From the IMG/VR virus record IMGVR_UViG_3300027804_002812, positions 128,001 through 192,000 of that record: DNA of 64,000 bases; one strand, written 5' to 3'. Below are positions 58,597 through 64,000 of this stretch, piece by piece. The notes under the pieces were generated by a model that saw only the letters and a list, made by a program, of their open reading frames with translations, ran no database searches and was not told the origin of the DNA. A program made the position numbers and the translations under genes. The DNA comes from a virus (lineage: Duplodnaviria > Caudoviricetes). The stretch's first letter is position 1, and every line of letters begins with the position of its first letter.

Positions 58597-58863
58597 TTAT
58601 AATTCTTCAATTTCGACCACCAATTGGTCCGATCCTTTTATGACTCTGTGCCAAACAAATTTAGGGATGTGAATATGACTGGACTTAGACAATTTGACCG
58701 GCAATTCATTTTCCATTTGAAATGACCATCCACCATCTTCAATAATGGTTACATTACGATCACTTAAGTCTTGGTGCCACTTTAATTCTTCTTCCTCTAC
58801 ATCAGGACTAAACGTCCTAATTTTTTTATTATCTACTTCTATTTGTTCAAAAGGGAAATCCAT
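58597..58863 (-). CDS. small cupin-like protein
   Basis: LKWHQD...IPKFVWHRVIKG; TAATG overlap with the upstream gene. Confidence 0.65.
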   Translation of the reverse strand: MDFPFEQIEVDNKKIRTFSPDVEEEELKWHQDLSDRNVTIIEDGGWSFQMENELPVKLSKSSHIHIPKFVWHRVIKGSDQLVVEIEEL

Positions 58864-59486
58864 TACCAAGAATTTGAAGATGATAATCCGAGCTGTTTTG
58901 CGTAACGACCTACGTTACAACTCCAGTATCCTGCGGTAGTTCTGTCTTTCTTTTGGTCACATTTATGTCGTGCTCTGAATGATTTCGCAGCACCCTTATT
59001 TTTATTTCTAACTCTCAAGTTAGGGTCTCCAAAAGATACTTTTTTAATACCACCACTCGGAGATTTGACATAAACCGCAAATTTCTTTGGTCCTCCTGAA
59101 GTTCTGAATGGTTTGTTCAACTTAACATTTTTACCTCTATGTTTTGCTTCTTCCAAAACGTCTTCCTCATCTTCTTCTTCAGTTACAAATGGCGCATCAA
59201 GATAGATTAATTGACCCTTAATCATTACTTTTTTACCCAAGTCTGATTCAACCATCAAAGTATCCTCCTCATTCAATTTAATCTTACCCGCTTCCCACAA
59301 TCTTCTCACTTCATTTACCAAATCGAAATAACTTTCAGAATAAGCTCTGAAAATGTTATTTGTTAAAGTCAATTCATTATCAACATGGTATTTCAATGCC
59401 TCAGAAAGTTCAACTGATTCTTTAATAATTAAAGATTTGTTCAAATGTTCTTCTAATGTTTCTTTGATTAGTTCTCTTAAATCCAT
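58863..59486 (-). CDS. hypothetical protein with basic C-terminal Cys/His module
   Basis: KLNKPFR...KKFAVYVK...SFRARHKC...YWSC; TATTTATA upstream. Confidence 0.7.
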   Translation of the reverse strand: MDLRELIKETLEEHLNKSLIIKESVELSEALKYHVDNELTLTNNIFRAYSESYFDLVNEVRRLWEAGKIKLNEEDTLMVESDLGKKVMIKGQLIYLDAPFVTEEEDEEDVLEEAKHRGKNVKLNKPFRTSGGPKKFAVYVKSPSGGIKKVSFGDPNLRVRNKNKGAAKSFRARHKCDQKKDRTTAGYWSCNVGRYAKQLGLSSSNSW

Positions 59487-59512
59487 TGGTTTGATATTTC
59501 CTATAAATACTC

Positions 59513-60130
59513 TTACTCTCTATTAAATTTTAATTTCCAATAAACACCTCCTGTTACATATGGGGTAAATTTACCAGTAACACCATCAAAGGTTCTATTT
59601 GCAACACCACCACCCAATTGGAATATCTTGTCATCTTTTGTTTTCAATAATATACTTGTCCCGAGTGAGTTGACCCAATCTTGATGACTTAAGGCTCCGT
59701 TCAATCCCACATAAACTTGGTTTCTAACTTTTGGTGGTTCAGGTGCTGGTTCCCTAACAATCTTAGGTTTTACATTTGTTGTAAACTTTCTTGAAACAAC
59801 GTTATTTTGTGAAATGGTGTCAAACAAATATATAACCCCCTGATTATTACTCAACATTATTGTATCTTGAACGAAATTTTTTATAAAAAAATTTTTTAAG
59901 ATGAATGCAGTGTCAACAAGTGGTGTTGGGGATGGAACCTCAACGATTTTTTCCACTTCAACTTCGTATGGAACCTCAACTTCGACCTCATAAATAACTT
60001 CCTGAGGGATTGTATCATAAACCAATTTTTCTTCTATTTCAATTTGTGGAGGAACGAAAAATTGTAAGAAGATTATTACACCCACCATTATGAGTATTAC
60101 TATGTGTCTGATGTCAAATATCTTTTTCAT
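59513..60130 (-). CDS. membrane-anchored periplasmic/outer-membrane protein
   Basis: N-terminal TM helix; DTI/DTA motifs; C-terminal amphipathic beta-strands. Confidence 0.65.
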   Translation of the reverse strand: MKKIFDIRHIVILIMVGVIIFLQFFVPPQIEIEEKLVYDTIPQEVIYEVEVEVPYEVEVEKIVEVPSPTPLVDTAFILKNFFIKNFVQDTIMLSNNQGVIYLFDTISQNNVVSRKFTTNVKPKIVREPAPEPPKVRNQVYVGLNGALSHQDWVNSLGTSILLKTKDDKIFQLGGGVANRTFDGVTGKFTPYVTGGVYWKLKFNRE

Positions 60131-60134
60131 ATTG

Positions 60135-61439
60135 TTATAACATTAATCTTGAACCAATCAAGAAATTGCTAAGAATTGGAGAACTTGAGTTACCCAATGC
60201 TCTGTAGTTTAGGCTTAATCCGAATCGTTTACTTATTTTATAATCAAATGAGGAACCGACTAAGAAAGAAAATTGTCTATTCACCGTTGACTCACCTGTT
60301 TTGGGGTTATATGAAATTGGTGAGTTCATTAAGAATACTTGGGGAGATAATGTGAGCTTTGGATTTACAACATAAGGTTTTGTCCAAAATACAACCGCTG
60401 AGGTCGCAAGAGATACGTTAAATGCTCTTTTAATTGTTCTTGTTTCAGTATTAACTTCAGTATCTTTCAACAATAAAGTTATTAAACCAACGTTATATCC
60501 GTATGTACCATATTTTTCACTTGGTTTAATATTCGTGTACCCAAGTAATCCCATATAAGTTCCATCTAAGTAAGCCGCGGTGAATGAGTAAGAGTGGATT
60601 TGACTTAATTTACCTTGTTGGAAATTCATTTTTGTATATCCCCCACCCAAAGCAAATTGGTCTAATGTACTCCAAATCATGGCGTTTGCACCCCAAGTTT
60701 CATTCCCTGCTAATGACGATTGACTAACACCAAAGGAGGCGATGGCGCTGTATTTCAAATCGGGTCCCTGTGCGGTTGTCAAGTCTGAGGAAACCAACAT
60801 TGGATTTACGGGACCAACTTTCTTTTTTTCTTCTTTACCTTTTCCGTCTGAACTTTCTTCATCACTTTCACCCGAGTCTCCACCATCTGAACCACCTTCT
60901 TCAGACCCACCCTCACTCGAACTTGATTCACTCGATCCTGACTCACTTGAACTTGATTCACCGCTACTCGAAGACGATGAGGATTCACTTGAAGAAGATT
61001 GTGATGATGAACTAGACGAACTAGATGATGAGGATGTAGGAGTGGAACTACTTGCGGAAGACGCAGCAGTTGAGGAGGCTGATGAAGATGCCGCGGAAGA
61101 TGCTGCAGATGAGGCTGCTGACGACGCCGCATTTGCCGCCGCTTGTGATACAGTTTGGGTGACAGTTTGGGTTACCACCGCATTTGCGGGACATGGAGTT
61201 GAAAAAATTCCGTTAATCCAAATGGTAACTTCCCCCGAAGTAAATTGTTGATAATTGAATATCTTGGATTTGTTTCTGACGATAACTAATACACCATTGT
61301 TAGATTGTATGGGTATGGATACCACATAAGTTTTTGAATCACAGGGGTCAATGTATGTTTGTGTAACAACTTGCCCCTGTGACTCGTGGTATGCTAATAC
61401 CATGAATAATAACATTAAAAATATTTTCAAACTTTTCAA
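60135..61439 (-). CDS. secreted protein with Ser-rich linker and predicted outer-membrane beta-barrel
   Basis: signal peptide, poly-Ser/Ala stretch, alternating beta-strands ending IGSRLML. Confidence 0.7.
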   Translation of the reverse strand: MKSLKIFLMLLFMVLAYHESQGQVVTQTYIDPCDSKTYVVSIPIQSNNGVLVIVRNKSKIFNYQQFTSGEVTIWINGIFSTPCPANAVVTQTVTQTVSQAAANAASSAASSAASSAASSSASSTAASSASSSTPTSSSSSSSSSSSQSSSSESSSSSSSGESSSSESGSSESSSSEGGSEEGGSDGGDSGESDEESSDGKGKEEKKKVGPVNPMLVSSDLTTAQGPDLKYSAIASFGVSQSSLAGNETWGANAMIWSTLDQFALGGGYTKMNFQQGKLSQIHSYSFTAAYLDGTYMGLLGYTNIKPSEKYGTYGYNVGLITLLLKDTEVNTETRTIKRAFNVSLATSAVVFWTKPYVVNPKLTLSPQVFLMNSPISYNPKTGESTVNRQFSFLVGSSFDYKISKRFGLSLNYRALGNSSSPILSNFLIGSRLML

Positions 61440-61461
61440 TTTTCATCGGTTTCCAAATATT

Positions 61462-62196
61462 TTATTCTGTGAATATACCTTTTTTAATCATTCTATCTAA
61501 GATTCTGGCACAAGCAATGTCAAGTGCCTTTTTTGTTGCGATAGATATTGTAGATTGATTAAATTTTACTGGATCGACAGTTGCGTCTGATAAAAGAGTC
61601 AATTCTCTTGTGGTAACCGCCTCTCCAAGTCCTGATGCTCCAAATACGACACCTGTTTCAGCATTTGTAAATCTAACTTGTAGACCAATACGGGTAACCA
61701 TCATATTTTTCACACCATCTTTCAGGTTTACAGTTTCATCTTCTGAGATGGAGTAATCATAACATTCAATAGTTACAAAATATTCTGCCAAATTGATTTT
61801 ACCAAATCCATCTAATTGATTTTCAGAAATTCCCGCCTGAGATGCTTGAAATTGTTTCACCATTCGGTTTTTAATTTCCGTCTTATCTTCAGTAAATTTG
61901 AATCTGTTTAGATTCTCAAGATATTCCATTGAAATGTTCGCAACACCTAATCCAACTCTTTTTTCTTTGAGTTCAGGATACATCTCATACATTTCATCTG
62001 AAATACCTGCCTTTAGGATTTGAATTGGAATCTGTTTTCCTTCATAATCCATAAATTGACTTATGTCAATTGCGGTTTCGAATGAAGCCTTGTATTGCTC
62101 AGTCTTTGTGCTTCCCACAGTTTGAGAAAACGCCGATATTTGTACTATTAGTGCAAATATCGACGATAATATAAATTTTTTCATATTAAACCTCAA
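61462..62196 (-). CDS. CsgG/HfaB-like protein
   Basis: signal peptide; NRFKFTE...AEYFVTIECYDY...IGLQVRFTNAETG...ASGLGEA. Confidence 0.6.
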   Translation of the reverse strand: MRFNMKKFILSSIFALIVQISAFSQTVGSTKTEQYKASFETAIDISQFMDYEGKQIPIQILKAGISDEMYEMYPELKEKRVGLGVANISMEYLENLNRFKFTEDKTEIKNRMVKQFQASQAGISENQLDGFGKINLAEYFVTIECYDYSISEDETVNLKDGVKNMMVTRIGLQVRFTNAETGVVFGASGLGEAVTTRELTLLSDATVDPVKFNQSTISIATKKALDIACARILDRMIKKGIFTE

Positions 62197-62212
62197 TTGT
62201 ATTATATGTTTA

Positions 62213-62374
62213 TTAAGGTCTCTTTGGCCAAGCCCAACCCTTCTTCTTACCTCTCAACATCAAGTAAGTCACACCTCCGAAGAAGATTAACATATATAAT
62301 GATGGTGAATAAAATACAAACATGGCAACCATCAACAATGACAGAAATACCATAAAACTTAAAAATTGTTCCAT
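62213..62374 (-). CDS. 53-aa 2-TM protein (below the ORF cutoff)
   Basis: MEQFLSFMVFLSLL...RGKKKGWAWPKRP. Confidence 0.55.
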   Translation of the reverse strand: MEQFLSFMVFLSLLMVAMFVFYSPSLYMLIFFGGVTYLMLRGKKKGWAWPKRP

Positions 62375-62375
62375 A

Positions 62376-62702
62376 TTACCATTTTGGAGAGGTTTCTTTG
62401 AACTCGTCTCCTTCTTTTTTCTTAGGTTTATCTGTCGATGCAGGTTGTGATGCTGGTTGACTTGATTTTTCTCTGATAATCACAGTTTCTTTACCACCAG
62501 ATTGTTGCTGTTGGTTGTTATTGTTGATGATAATTGGTGTTTGTTGTTGGACAGGTGTTGCCGCAGCTTCTTCATCTCCACCGATGAATTTACTTGTCAT
62601 AACACCACCAGCTCCTAAGACTGCAGTAGTCAACAATCCGATGATTGTTTTCTTTAACCCTGTCCATGTTCCATCATTGTGGTCTTCTGTTTCTTCACTC
62701 AT
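62376..62702 (-). CDS. single-TM protein with low-complexity tail
   Basis: IIGLLTTAVLGAGGV; NNNNQQQQ. Confidence 0.65.
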   Translation of the reverse strand: MSEETEDHNDGTWTGLKKTIIGLLTTAVLGAGGVMTSKFIGGDEEAAATPVQQQTPIIINNNNQQQQSGGKETVIIREKSSQPASQPASTDKPKKKEGDEFKETSPKW

Positions 62703-62724
62703 AATTTATTTTAGTTTAGTTGGT

Positions 62725-63087
62725 TTATTTTATTATTATTGGGTATTTTATTTCTTTTCCTGAAACATCCAAAAAGACCAAGTCATAATATCCTTTGGGA
62801 AATTCAGTCAAATCGTATACTCTTTGTGTGGTTGTGTTAGTAGCCGTGAATCCCTCCTTCTTTGCGGGGATTTCTTGACCAAACGCGACTATTTGAACAG
62901 AGTATTTCGCACCAATGGTGGTTTCAAACTCTATTATCACTACGTTTTCACTCTGAAAAACAGATTTGATGTTTGTAGTTGTTGACTCAACTCCTAAATT
63001 GATTTCAGGCATCTCCTCGTAATAAGGGTTGAAACATCCTTGTAACAAGAGAACTGAGAAACTTAGTATTGCTATTATTTTTTTCAT
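62725..63087 (-). CDS. lipoprotein, Ig-like fold
   Basis: lipobox LQGC; GYYDLVF. Confidence 0.65.
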   Translation of the reverse strand: MKKIIAILSFSVLLLQGCFNPYYEEMPEINLGVESTTTNIKSVFQSENVVIIEFETTIGAKYSVQIVAFGQEIPAKKEGFTATNTTTQRVYDLTEFPKGYYDLVFLDVSGKEIKYPIIIK

Positions 63088-63088
63088 T

Positions 63089-64000
63089 TTAGAAATTATT
63101 ATATCCCGTTAATTTTATTTGGGTTGTGTTTAATTTTATCCCTAACTGAGAACCCTTAACTGTACTTGCGTCCATAGTTGAGGATACTTTGATAGAAGTC
63201 AGAATATCGACTCCATTCCCGATGGTTGAAAATTTCAACTTGAACGGAATCGTATTTCCAATTATTGGGGTTTTTTCACCTTGATCTATACCACCGAATT
63301 TGACTTTACCGTCAACAGAATTGACAAATATGTACCATGTATTTGGTAGATTTGGCGACAACTCCTCAAACTTTATCTTTGTTGGGTCATAATCAAATTC
63401 AAACTGTAATCCTGTGATAGGATTACCATTTGTTGTTACATTTACTGGGATTTCGATGTTGTTAGATGTCACAGTCAAATTAGATAGGTTGACATCTACT
63501 GATGGAACATTATTTGGAGTATTGATAAATGACTCAGTAGACATGGTTCTAAACGCAGTGTTAGACTTCAAACTATTTGATGCTCTACTTACAACAGATG
63601 ATACTCCATTATTACTAACAACAACTTGTGATGAATGTGAACGATTCACATCTCCCCACAAAAGATATTTCAAGTCTACAACTGTGTTAGTTCCTATTGT
63701 CCCTGTTTTCACATAAACTTTTGGATATTCAAAATCTTTCCAATTCGTTGTGGTGATTGCTCCCCATGAATTGGACGGTGAAGTATTAAATGTAAATTCA
63801 GCCCTCAGTCCGAAGTCTGGTCCTCCATTTATATTTCTTATGTATGGGGCATATGCCGATGTTCCTATAGTGCTTATACCTGATGGTATTCTGAAAGTTG
63901 CCCAAGTGGCATCTTTTGATACAAATTCTATAGGACCTACATATAAGTCAAAAATCTGAAGTGATTTTACGTTGTCAGGAATGTTAGTTCCGCTAAATTC
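63089..64000 (-). CDS. C-terminal part of a large protein with a cohesin-like domain (truncated by the window)
   Basis: frame stays open from 63712 to 64000; IEIPVNV...ITGLQFEFDYDPTKIKF...VKFGGID. Confidence 0.65.
   Translation of the reverse strand, partial: EFSGTNIPDNVKSLQIFDLYVGPIEFVSKDATWATFRIPSGISTIGTSAYAPYIRNINGGPDFGLRAEFTFNTSPSNSWGAITTTNWKDFEYPKVYVKTGTIGTNTVVDLKYLLWGDVNRSHSSQVVVSNNGVSSVVSRASNSLKSNTAFRTMSTESFINTPNNVPSVDVNLSNLTVTSNNIEIPVNVTTNGNPITGLQFEFDYDPTKIKFEELSPNLPNTWYIFVNSVDGKVKFGGIDQGEKTPIIGNTIPFKLKFSTIGNGVDILTSIKVSSTMDASTVKGSQLGIKLNTTQIKLTGYNNF

Follow-up and report, generated by a model that had tools for sequence, protein, structure and literature searches.

A cassette of eight genes for exported proteins, which we named g8 to g1, lies at the end of a 64,000-nucleotide stretch (the window) of the IMG/VR virus record IMGVR_UViG_3300027804_002812 and runs on beyond it. 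We give even chances to its being a module for remodelling the outer membrane and cell surface of the infected bacterium, or for display on it. This reading is built on predicted folds, export signals, co-conservation of the genes and the cargo proteins of the T9SS (type IX secretion system) encoded beside them in related phages; where the products would localise, how they would assemble and what the phage would gain were inferred from these observations. The window corresponds to positions 128001-192000 (G000:C1) of the 326,291-bp record, which is rated complete by CheckV, and its G+C content is ~31-38% throughout. Among cultured phages, DNA similarity to the stretch was detected solely in the 160-kb Flavobacterium phages vB_FspM_immuto (hereafter immuto), at 65% identity over one gene, and a Flavobacterium-type member of Bacteroidota is therefore very likely to be the host.

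Seven minus-strand open reading frames (ORFs), separated by gaps of 1-26 nt, fill positions 59513-64000 (Table 1). A preliminary description of this DNA, made from the letters of the window, had pointed to seven co-oriented, closely spaced genes, nearly all with export features, and had expected the cassette to continue past position 64000. Both statements were borne out: reading further in L003 (positions 186001-202000 of the virus record, G000:C1) extended the unit by 1.7 kb to eight genes in all, completing g7 at 701 amino acids (aa) and adding g8. The gene names run in reverse order of transcription. Signal peptides, lipoboxes, membrane anchors and hydrophobic segments were all called by eye; in these terms an export feature (signal, lipobox or membrane anchor) is present in all eight products. 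The leaders of g7, g3 and g2 are of the Bacteroidota type, ending in Q; g8, g5 and g1 have one N-terminal hydrophobic segment each, and g4 has two.

Conservation of the cassette across phages

We compared 80 IMG/VR viral loci, chosen by their similarity to g3. The order g8-g7-(g6)-g5-(g4)-g3-g2-(g1), in which the bracketed genes are variable, is kept across these loci, so that the synteny across phages proposed earlier as a check on the cassette was indeed found. Identity across the loci amounts to 82-100% for g3, 42-98% for g8, 43-98% for g5, 34-98% for g2 (partly owing to its linker) and 25-90% for g7, and that of the endolysin encoded upstream of g8 drops to 65% over the same set. Since g3 stays at 82-100% while its neighbours diverge, it is the constrained centre of the cassette, and the large exported proteins evolve fast. 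The variable genes g6 (30 loci), g4 (18 loci, the closest relatives) and g1 (35 loci) are confined to the nearer relatives.

Counterparts of five genes occur in immuto. Its gene 17 corresponds to g3 (51% identity), gene 16 to g5 and gene 19 to g8; gene 18 has the layout of g2 together with the Y-x-D-P-C motif of g2, and g7 is represented at its two ends by genes 14 and 15. A gene for a C-type lectin protein adjoins these counterparts. A marine lineage encodes, in a row, a membrane-anchored coiled-coil protein, a g3-like lipoprotein (~36% identity), a g2-like barrel and a g8-like protein. Genes g3, g2 and g8 co-occur in three phage lineages at 35-50% identity.

The cohesin protein of immuto (gene 15) carries at its end a type A sorting domain of the T9SS (TIGR04183; 44.8 bits, cut-off 23), and in the marine lineage a protein of 937-987 aa with TIGR04183 (35.3 bits for the 937-aa one of L100) precedes the core (L100:2836-6521, also L102 and L104) and is followed by a PorV/PorQ-family barrel (125.4 bits, cut-off 90). 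In freshwater relatives the position of g7 holds proteins with Lectin_C and cohesin domains. Some relatives have, in addition, a gene for an 825-aa protein resembling TonB-dependent receptors (CarbopepD_reg, Plug and OMP_b-brl_3), which is paired with that of a 400-aa lipoprotein and located between g3 and g2 or nearby (L026:9013-12683; L069:10669-14345; L060:4321-7778). The core thus seems to adjoin proteins destined for the outer membrane or cell surface in every lineage. The preliminary description had suggested a display or secretion apparatus; its display part gains from the T9SS-tailed relatives and the PorV/PorQ neighbour, and its other part, with g3 as a CsgG-type secretion pore, found no support.

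Two further observations concern these neighbours. With the PorV/PorQ homologue, the marine phages have their own copy of a T9SS shuttle component. A DNA/RNA non-specific nuclease with a signal peptide adjoins the cassette in immuto (gene 12), in L026 (14897-15499) and in L077 (10521-11156); in the phage studied here, such a nuclease is encoded 6.7 kb upstream of g8 (L003:13891-14538). The company of this signal-bearing protein in several lineages suggests a periplasmic or secreted enzyme.

Two proteins with the CsgG fold

Taken alone, g3 has no match in Pfam (E up to 1), NCBIfam or PHROGs, and gave only noise against the sequences of the PDB. Relatives of g3 are extremely common: at E up to 0.001 a search returned 6,178 proteins, contigs of 250-344 kb being the source of many, and an exhaustive search among 50%-identity representatives yielded 207 relatives. 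Pfam CsgG (PF03783) was matched by 13 of 32 full-length relatives (best E 1.9e-17) and LpoB by six; the profile of the 32 g3-family sequences matches CsgG in the PDB (E 0.005), and a language model places g3, apart from viral clusters, next to those of CsgG/HfaB and LpoB (score 0.94). The AlphaFold2 (AF2) model of g3 has a predicted local distance difference test score (pLDDT) of 84.4. In Foldseek the model comes closest to CsgG chains (E 1.8e-7), and CsgG is also the top match in VIA-align (Z 12.7, root-mean-square deviation (rmsd) 3.5, 166 aligned), followed by an LptE-like protein (10.3), PelC (9.9), FlgT (9.2) and LptE (~8). The assignment of the CsgG alpha/beta fold to the modelled g3 is sound, and the CsgG-like protein announced in the preliminary description is upheld as to its fold by these structural matches and by the 13 of 32 homologues. 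Because g3 has no PF03783 match of its own and both these homologues and the family profile do match, we place it as a distant relative inside the CsgG superfamily, not as a member of PF03783 by the curated cut-off.

In other respects g3 departs from CsgG. Its leader ends S-A-F-S-Q, has no Cys and no lipobox and is of the signal-peptidase-I type; many distant homologues, the marine and bacterial ones included, carry L-x-x-C. The stretches aligned with the transmembrane segments TM1 and TM2 of CsgG are shorter by ~5 and ~8 residues. Among the 32 family members, charged residues make up 50-83% at positions 152-155, where E154 hardly varies; in the TM2 equivalent, Gly, Thr and charged residues prevail and no alternating hydrophobic face is present. 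Judged from sequence alone, the two amphipathic membrane hairpins of CsgG, which build its 36-stranded barrel, are missing from the g3 family. CsgE, CsgF, CsgA and CsgB were not matched by any of the eight products in Pfam, PHROGs and NCBIfam scans, in agreement with the earlier remark that no curli subunit is visible here. As the lipobox is absent and the hairpin segments are short and charged, we concluded that g3 is probably a soluble or peripherally attached periplasmic protein with the CsgG fold, and not a CsgG-type pore. A curli-like or FapF-like channel is unlikely for g3.

A second protein of this fold, g8, was absent from the preliminary description, as was the tight linkage of the cassette to the endolysin. 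Direct family scans with g8 gave nothing useful, and its family profile matched nothing in the PDB. When the g8 family (19 relatives) was compared with the g3 family profile by hhalign, a probability of 92.7% was obtained (E 4e-7, 121 columns). The complex prediction for mature g3 and g8, run on alignments of our own making, scored 0.44, and the best of three controls 0.00. The mark passed by this prediction is also reached by 58 of 80 solved complexes and by two of 110 mismatched pairs, and at scores of 0.60 or under it is reached by just seven of the 80 solved complexes and by both passing mismatches. At least 45% of contacts are shared between the runs, and the pLDDT of the partner is at least 70. 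The prediction thus lends weak support to a g3-g8 complex; the pass may reflect fold likeness alone, ring complexes of the CsgG fold being among the solved structures.

A barrel with a tethered N-terminal domain

The beta-barrel behind a Ser-rich linker, as described earlier for g2, was recovered in its AF2 model (33 relatives; pLDDT 62.8 overall and ~75-83 in the barrel). An N-terminal domain of ~60 aa (residues 24-80) is modelled, with low confidence, as small strands and helices. Residues 112-210 are disordered, being Ser-rich, then acidic, then Lys-rich, and the barrel proper comprises 12 long strands at residues 214-433. C33, C83, P213 and D219 are invariant among the relatives, the latter two in a P-x5-D motif just ahead of the first strand. 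The linker, ~100 aa long in this phage, is reduced to ~25 aa in the marine form.

FapF was the top Foldseek match (E 3.9e-7), followed by NanC, KdgM and autotransporter beta-domains. VIA-align favoured the NalP translocator (Z 23.0, rmsd 3.5, 241 aligned) over EspP (Z 21.5), FapF (Z 18.8, rmsd 3.1, 225 aligned) and KdgM (Z 18.5), and a shape search of the Atlas returned viral clusters along with autotransporter beta-domain clusters. The Pfam Autotransporter family (PF03797) gave no match to g2 at E up to 1, and no Fap family was found in the Pfam and NCBIfam scans of the cassette products. On the model, g2 clearly falls into the autotransporter/FapF/KdgM class of barrels, all 12-stranded, a class that by itself gives no function. 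With an even number of strands, the N-terminal domain would be periplasmic by default; to lie outside, it would need a linker threaded through the pore in the autotransporter manner. The AF2 model leaves its side undecided because the helix ahead of the barrel (residues 87-122) has a pLDDT below 60 and its placement is untrustworthy.

Adhesin-like protein, lipoprotein and membrane proteins

The cohesin-like protein reported earlier proved to be a borderline match: Cohesin PF00963 at the C-terminus of g7 scored 25.6 bits on the fragment inside the window and 22.7 bits on the full protein, with a cut-off of 24.1. The assignment is supported by 36% identity to the annotated cohesin-domain protein of immuto and by the Atlas neighbours of g7, viral clusters with Cohesin, Dockerin_1 and the name 'secretion system C-terminal sorting domain'. 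The leader of g7 ends SFGQ, and its N-terminal part resembles immuto gene 14. A loop of the form D-I-N-R-N-K-x-I-D-G-G-D-L is present in 18 of 18 g7 orthologues of ~700 aa and in one of 635 background ORFs. Pfam Dockerin PF00404 (Dockerin_1) gave no match in g7, which contains one EF-hand-like loop and no paired repeats; we consider this putative calcium loop a dockerin-like motif and not a demonstrated dockerin. No T9SS sorting domain (TIGR04183 or type B) was matched in g7, which ends in the cohesin domain, or in g6, and no PorV-family gene is present in the phage genome. The only T9SS sorting-domain match of the genome lies elsewhere, in a 712-aa ORF (G000:C1:34760-34939; L106), and reaches 16.5 bits (cut-off 23).

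The lipoprotein noted earlier is g6, whose lipobox L-Q-G-C stands within L-L-Q-G-C at residues 14-18; it has no family match in direct scans. A T9SS-tail look-alike in g6 was considered and discarded, there being no match; one g6-like lipoprotein (L077) attained 18.2 bits (cut-off 23). The sequence of g5 begins with an acidic part, after which come K-K and a hydrophobic stretch. Three parts of it recur in 73 loci as well as in gene 16 of immuto: the N-terminus with the membrane segment, P-V-I-N-I-T-N and the C-terminal K-K-E-G-D-E-F-K-E..W. Direct family scans of g4 and g5 gave nothing useful; by eye, the topology of g4 appears holin-like. No family or PDB match was obtained for g1, either in direct scans or with its family profile against the PDB. 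An equivalence of g1 with a 231-aa anchored protein of the marine lineage, alike by eye, was rejected (hhalign 0.9%).

Counterparts in bacteria

A scan of bacterial genomes, one per species, yielded 11 loci, five of which look like binned phage contigs with the same cassette. The other six belong to metagenome-assembled genomes (MAGs) of KSB1, Rhodothermales, Ignavibacteriales, Bacteroidota, Cloacimonadota and Chitinivibrionales. A g3-like gene with a g8-like gene directly after it occurs in four of the six, and the g3-like product is a lipoprotein in the two loci read. The g8 family aligns with the g8-like protein of Ignavibacteriales at 96% hhalign probability (E 4e-9), and that locus is placed on a 232-kb contig in surroundings of the housekeeping type. 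Its neighbour (L094:9370-11847) is a protein of 825 aa with transglutaminase-like and TPR-like parts, and that of the Bacteroidota MAG (L095:8818-10890) has a caspase-like C-terminal part, both as recognised by eye. Distant homologues of g3 are also fused to Peptidase_C14 (P0214) and to a Ser/Thr kinase (P0257).

Such CsgG-fold fusions and neighbours in bacteria of the Fibrobacterota-Chlorobiota-Bacteroidota (FCB) group hint at an undescribed bacterial envelope system. A barrel gene ahead of the bacterial pair in L095 was not counted as a homologue of g2 (hhalign 0.6%; BLAST to the marine form, E 6e-4).

Proposed function of the cassette and its alternatives

We propose that, through the operon g8-g1, the phage would load the envelope of its Bacteroidota host cell with proteins of its own during infection, and that these products would assemble at the outer membrane. 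On the periplasmic face of this membrane, g3 and g8 would probably join into an oligomer or heteromer, closer to helpers of the PelC, FlgT and LptE kind than to the CsgG pore. The g2 barrel would carry a small disulfide-type domain on its long, flexible Ser-rich tether, and g5, as a single-pass inner-membrane protein with a disordered tail, would belong to the conserved core. The variable load would consist of the cohesin/dockerin adhesin-like g7 and of lipoproteins (g6), to which relatives add lectin heads, T9SS tails and the TonB-dependent-receptor pair. The outcome would be a cell surface altered in the course of infection, through adhesin display, receptor masking or both.

Several points weigh against this proposal. 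With no T9SS sorting tail on the g7 of this phage and no PorV homologue in its genome, g7 has no obvious route to the surface. The endolysin is linked to the cassette across the whole lineage, and in some relatives it is found inside it with small membrane proteins. The bacterial g3 and g8 pairs adjoin transglutaminase/TPR or caspase-domain proteins, not adhesins, and the g2-like barrel beside one such pair (L095) is unconfirmed as a homologue at an hhalign value of 0.6%.

A broader explanation would combine g3/g8, the g2-type barrel and the inner-membrane tether into an undescribed outer-membrane machine of the FCB group, captured by several Bacteroidota phage lineages and used either for T9SS-independent mounting of adhesins or for the missing lysis step, the breaching of the outer membrane, in these phages; we regard it as doubtful.

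A role in lysis or outer-membrane disruption as such is unlikely, but it is the main rival of our proposal and a serious one. Under this scenario, after the action of a holin and the GH19 endolysin, g5 (perhaps g1) together with g3/g8, g6 and g2 would breach the outer membrane or time its breaching, in a spanin-like manner or as a 'gated pore', a role proposed for the CsgGF of phage Melnitz. The endolysin adjoins the cassette in 21 viral and three MAG loci; it is divergent from g8 in close relatives and co-oriented directly upstream of g8 in L026, L028, L039, L067 and L088. In L069 it is located between g5 and g3, along with a 102-aa two-segment and a 216-aa membrane protein, and similar small membrane proteins occupy the space between g5 and g3 in L077, L064 and L027. 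An anchored coiled-coil gene overlapping a lipoprotein gene is the typical i-spanin/o-spanin layout, and in the marine phages a 126-137-aa anchored coiled-coil protein is encoded directly ahead of the g3-like lipoprotein, the genes overlapping by one base. Both this arrangement and that of L069 would be expected of a lysis cassette equipped with spanins. Moreover, lysis timing was suggested from synteny for the CsgGF of phage Melnitz by Buchholz et al. (PMC9004378). However, in the marine lineage no endolysin exists within 8 kb of the core, and the lysin of immuto is ~7.7 kb away. Adhesin-type proteins, T9SS tails, lectin heads and a TonB-dependent receptor would be superfluous for lysis. Unlike known o-spanins, g3 is a folded protein of 240 aa with bacterial chromosomal homologues; the tail of g5 is of low complexity and has no evident coiled coil, and the small membrane proteins beside the endolysin (and that of L003:11181-11432, see below) match no PHROG holin family. 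As regards a two-component spanin, the cassette has the anchor of g5, the lipoprotein g6 and the linkage to the endolysin; g6 comes ahead of g5, and scans for spanin and holin families gave no match.

Quite improbable is a secretion channel, with g3 as a CsgG-like pore or g2 as a FapF-like transporter for the export of g7, of the Q/N-rich tail of g5 or of the N-terminal domain of g2. CsgG and FapF are the top structural match of g3 and the top Foldseek match of g2, respectively; g2 has the layout of a small autotransporter (N-terminal domain, linker, 12-stranded C-terminal barrel) with a Z of 23.0 to NalP, its Atlas neighbours include autotransporter beta-domain clusters, and g7, having no T9SS tail, needs some exit route. 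These points are opposed by the missing lipobox and the shorter, charged hairpin stretches of g3, by the lack of any match to CsgE, CsgF, CsgA or CsgB and of a Fap partner, and by g2 itself, with no Pfam Autotransporter match at E up to 1 and a pre-barrel helix of pLDDT below 60. A 12-stranded barrel is, furthermore, too narrow for a folded 701-aa protein, which counts against export of g7 via g2. Very improbable is the absence of any joint function, the cassette being a loose set of 'moron' genes for unrelated envelope proteins held together only by shared late expression: g6, g4 and g1 do come and go between lineages and relatives contain foreign insertions (TonB-dependent-receptor pair, nuclease, endolysin), but the order of g8, g7, g5, g3 and g2 is constant in 80 viral loci, g3, g2 and g8 are found together in three phage lineages, and g3 and g8 are adjacent in bacteria too.

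The cassette is carried by a very abundant group of lake phages, and the records of g3 include contigs of 320-344 kb. If redecoration of the surface holds true, the cassette would be a clear case of a lytic phage spending ~6 kb on changing the surface of its host, of consequence for the exclusion of one phage by another and for how cells aggregate and particles attach in lakes; if the cassette is a lysis device, it would fill a gap in how Bacteroidota phages breach the outer membrane. Under the surface and lysis readings alike, it draws attention to a pair of CsgG-fold proteins, so far unstudied, in FCB bacteria.

Gene layout, transcription signals and neighbouring genes

Table 1 Genes of the cassette and the adjacent endolysin (window positions unless L003 is given)
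Gene	Position	Strand	Product
g8	L003:7195-7689, outside window	minus	164 aa, putative small CsgG-fold protein; directly upstream of g7, zero gap
g7	63089-64000 in window (C-terminal 303 aa), on to window-equivalent 65194 (L003:5089-7194)	minus	701 aa
g6	62725-63087	minus	120-aa lipoprotein
g5	62376-62702	minus	108 aa; single-pass inner-membrane protein, low-complexity Q/N/P/K-rich tail
g4	62213-62374	minus	53 aa; two hydrophobic segments
g3	61462-62196	minus	244 aa, probably 240 aa from ATG at residue 5; putative CsgG-superfamily periplasmic protein
g2	60135-61439	minus	434 aa; signal peptide, two-Cys domain, Ser-rich linker, predicted 12-stranded barrel
g1	59513-60130	minus	205 aa; N-terminal membrane anchor, conserved beta-rich C-terminus; last gene of unit
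GH19 endolysin	upstream of g8, divergent	plus	275 aa; Pfam PG_binding_1 and GH19; phrog_181, E 6e-67

The octamer TATTTATG was found at L003:7708-7715 (minus), ~25 nt ahead of the start of g8, and TATTTATA at window positions 59502-59509 (minus), 17 nt ahead of the start of the gene after g1. The endolysin is likewise preceded by TATTTATA (L003:7787-7794, plus). In 16 kb the octamer was counted five times against 1.8 expected, a number reached in four of 200 shuffles, and TATTTATA/TATTTATG is a possible candidate for a late-promoter element of the phage. A scan for sigma-70 promoters gave 36 sites where shuffled sequences led one to expect 31, which is no improvement on chance, and the unit contains no convincing terminator on the minus strand. 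We infer that g8 to g1 constitute a single transcription unit. One freshwater metatranscriptome run contained 0.09 of the sampled words of the stretch, and two of the contigs of this run match the stretch with no differences, over 251 nt at the 3' end of g3 and 226 nt in g5; these matches are not evidence of expression, since DNA carry-over is possible and the contigs give no transcript ends.

The gene after g1 (58863-59486, minus) encodes a 207-aa protein with no export signal that matches phrog_7595 (unknown function; E 1.5e-13). It is situated downstream of g1 in 35 loci and, having a promoter-like motif of its own, is probably a separate unit. On the other side of the cassette, a homologue of the 102-aa protein of L069 is encoded at L003:11181-11432 (minus); with 83 aa and two hydrophobic segments, it is a candidate holin. 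Its homologues are found in L069, directly ahead of the endolysin, and in L077, where they separate g5 from g3.

Comparison with known systems

Genes of the CsgG family have been described in phages before. Pelagimyophages (HTVC008M group) and the Methylophilales phage Melnitz carry csgG and csgF in a variable region with no curli subunit genes; uptake, 'sibling capture' and lysis timing were suggested as roles for phage CsgGF, and the phage genes were placed near alphaproteobacterial curli genes in a tree (PMC7029224; PMC9004378). The preliminary description had stated that CsgG-like genes have been noted in huge phages; such genes are on record for pelagimyophages and Melnitz, and no record was found for 'huge phages' as such. 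Our literature search (CsgG, phage, cohesin, T9SS) revealed no publication describing the present cassette, and it is different from the published phage CsgG/CsgF clusters in composition, host phylum and the nature of its CsgG-fold proteins. Common to both are T4-like or large phages with a CsgG-family gene and no curli subunits. Here, however, g3 has no Pfam CsgG match of its own, no lipobox, charged hairpins and no CsgF beside it, and g3 is joined in the cassette by another gene of the CsgG fold, by a barrel of 12 strands and by cohesin adhesins, in phages of Bacteroidota hosts.

Compared with CsgG of E. coli (PDB 4uv2/4uv3), the type VIII channel, g3 shares the alpha/beta fold (Z 12.7; profile E 0.005) at ~10% identity, whereas the lipid anchor, the amphipathic hairpins and the curli partners are absent.

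PelC and LptE are lipoproteins, and their barrels have 16 and 26 strands, with TPR or jellyroll domains. PelC-PelB (PDB 5t0z, 9h80) and LptE-LptD resemble the cassette in pairing an outer-membrane barrel with a small alpha/beta protein whose fold class is that of g3; g3 aligns with PelC at Z 9.9 (rmsd 4.7, 138 aligned) and with LptE at Z ~8. In contrast to these systems, g2 has 12 strands and a tethered two-Cys domain, and no polysaccharide or lipopolysaccharide genes are present here.

Type Va autotransporters (NalP, 1uyn; EspP) and FapF (5o65) share with g2 a 12-stranded C-terminal barrel that follows a linker and an N-terminal domain. Unlike them, g2 has no sequence-family match, its 'passenger' amounts to ~60 aa and its linker is Ser-rich and of low complexity; in FapF the N-terminal part is a coiled coil, whereas that of g2 was modelled, with low confidence, as small strands and helices with two Cys. 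Porins of the KdgM type match the g2 barrel nearly as well as autotransporters and FapF do.

Finally, the relatives of g7 combine cohesin, dockerin-like and lectin modules in the manner of the T9SS surface proteins of Bacteroidota, and immuto adds the TIGR04183 tail, whereas the g7 of this phage ends in its cohesin domain, with no sorting tail.

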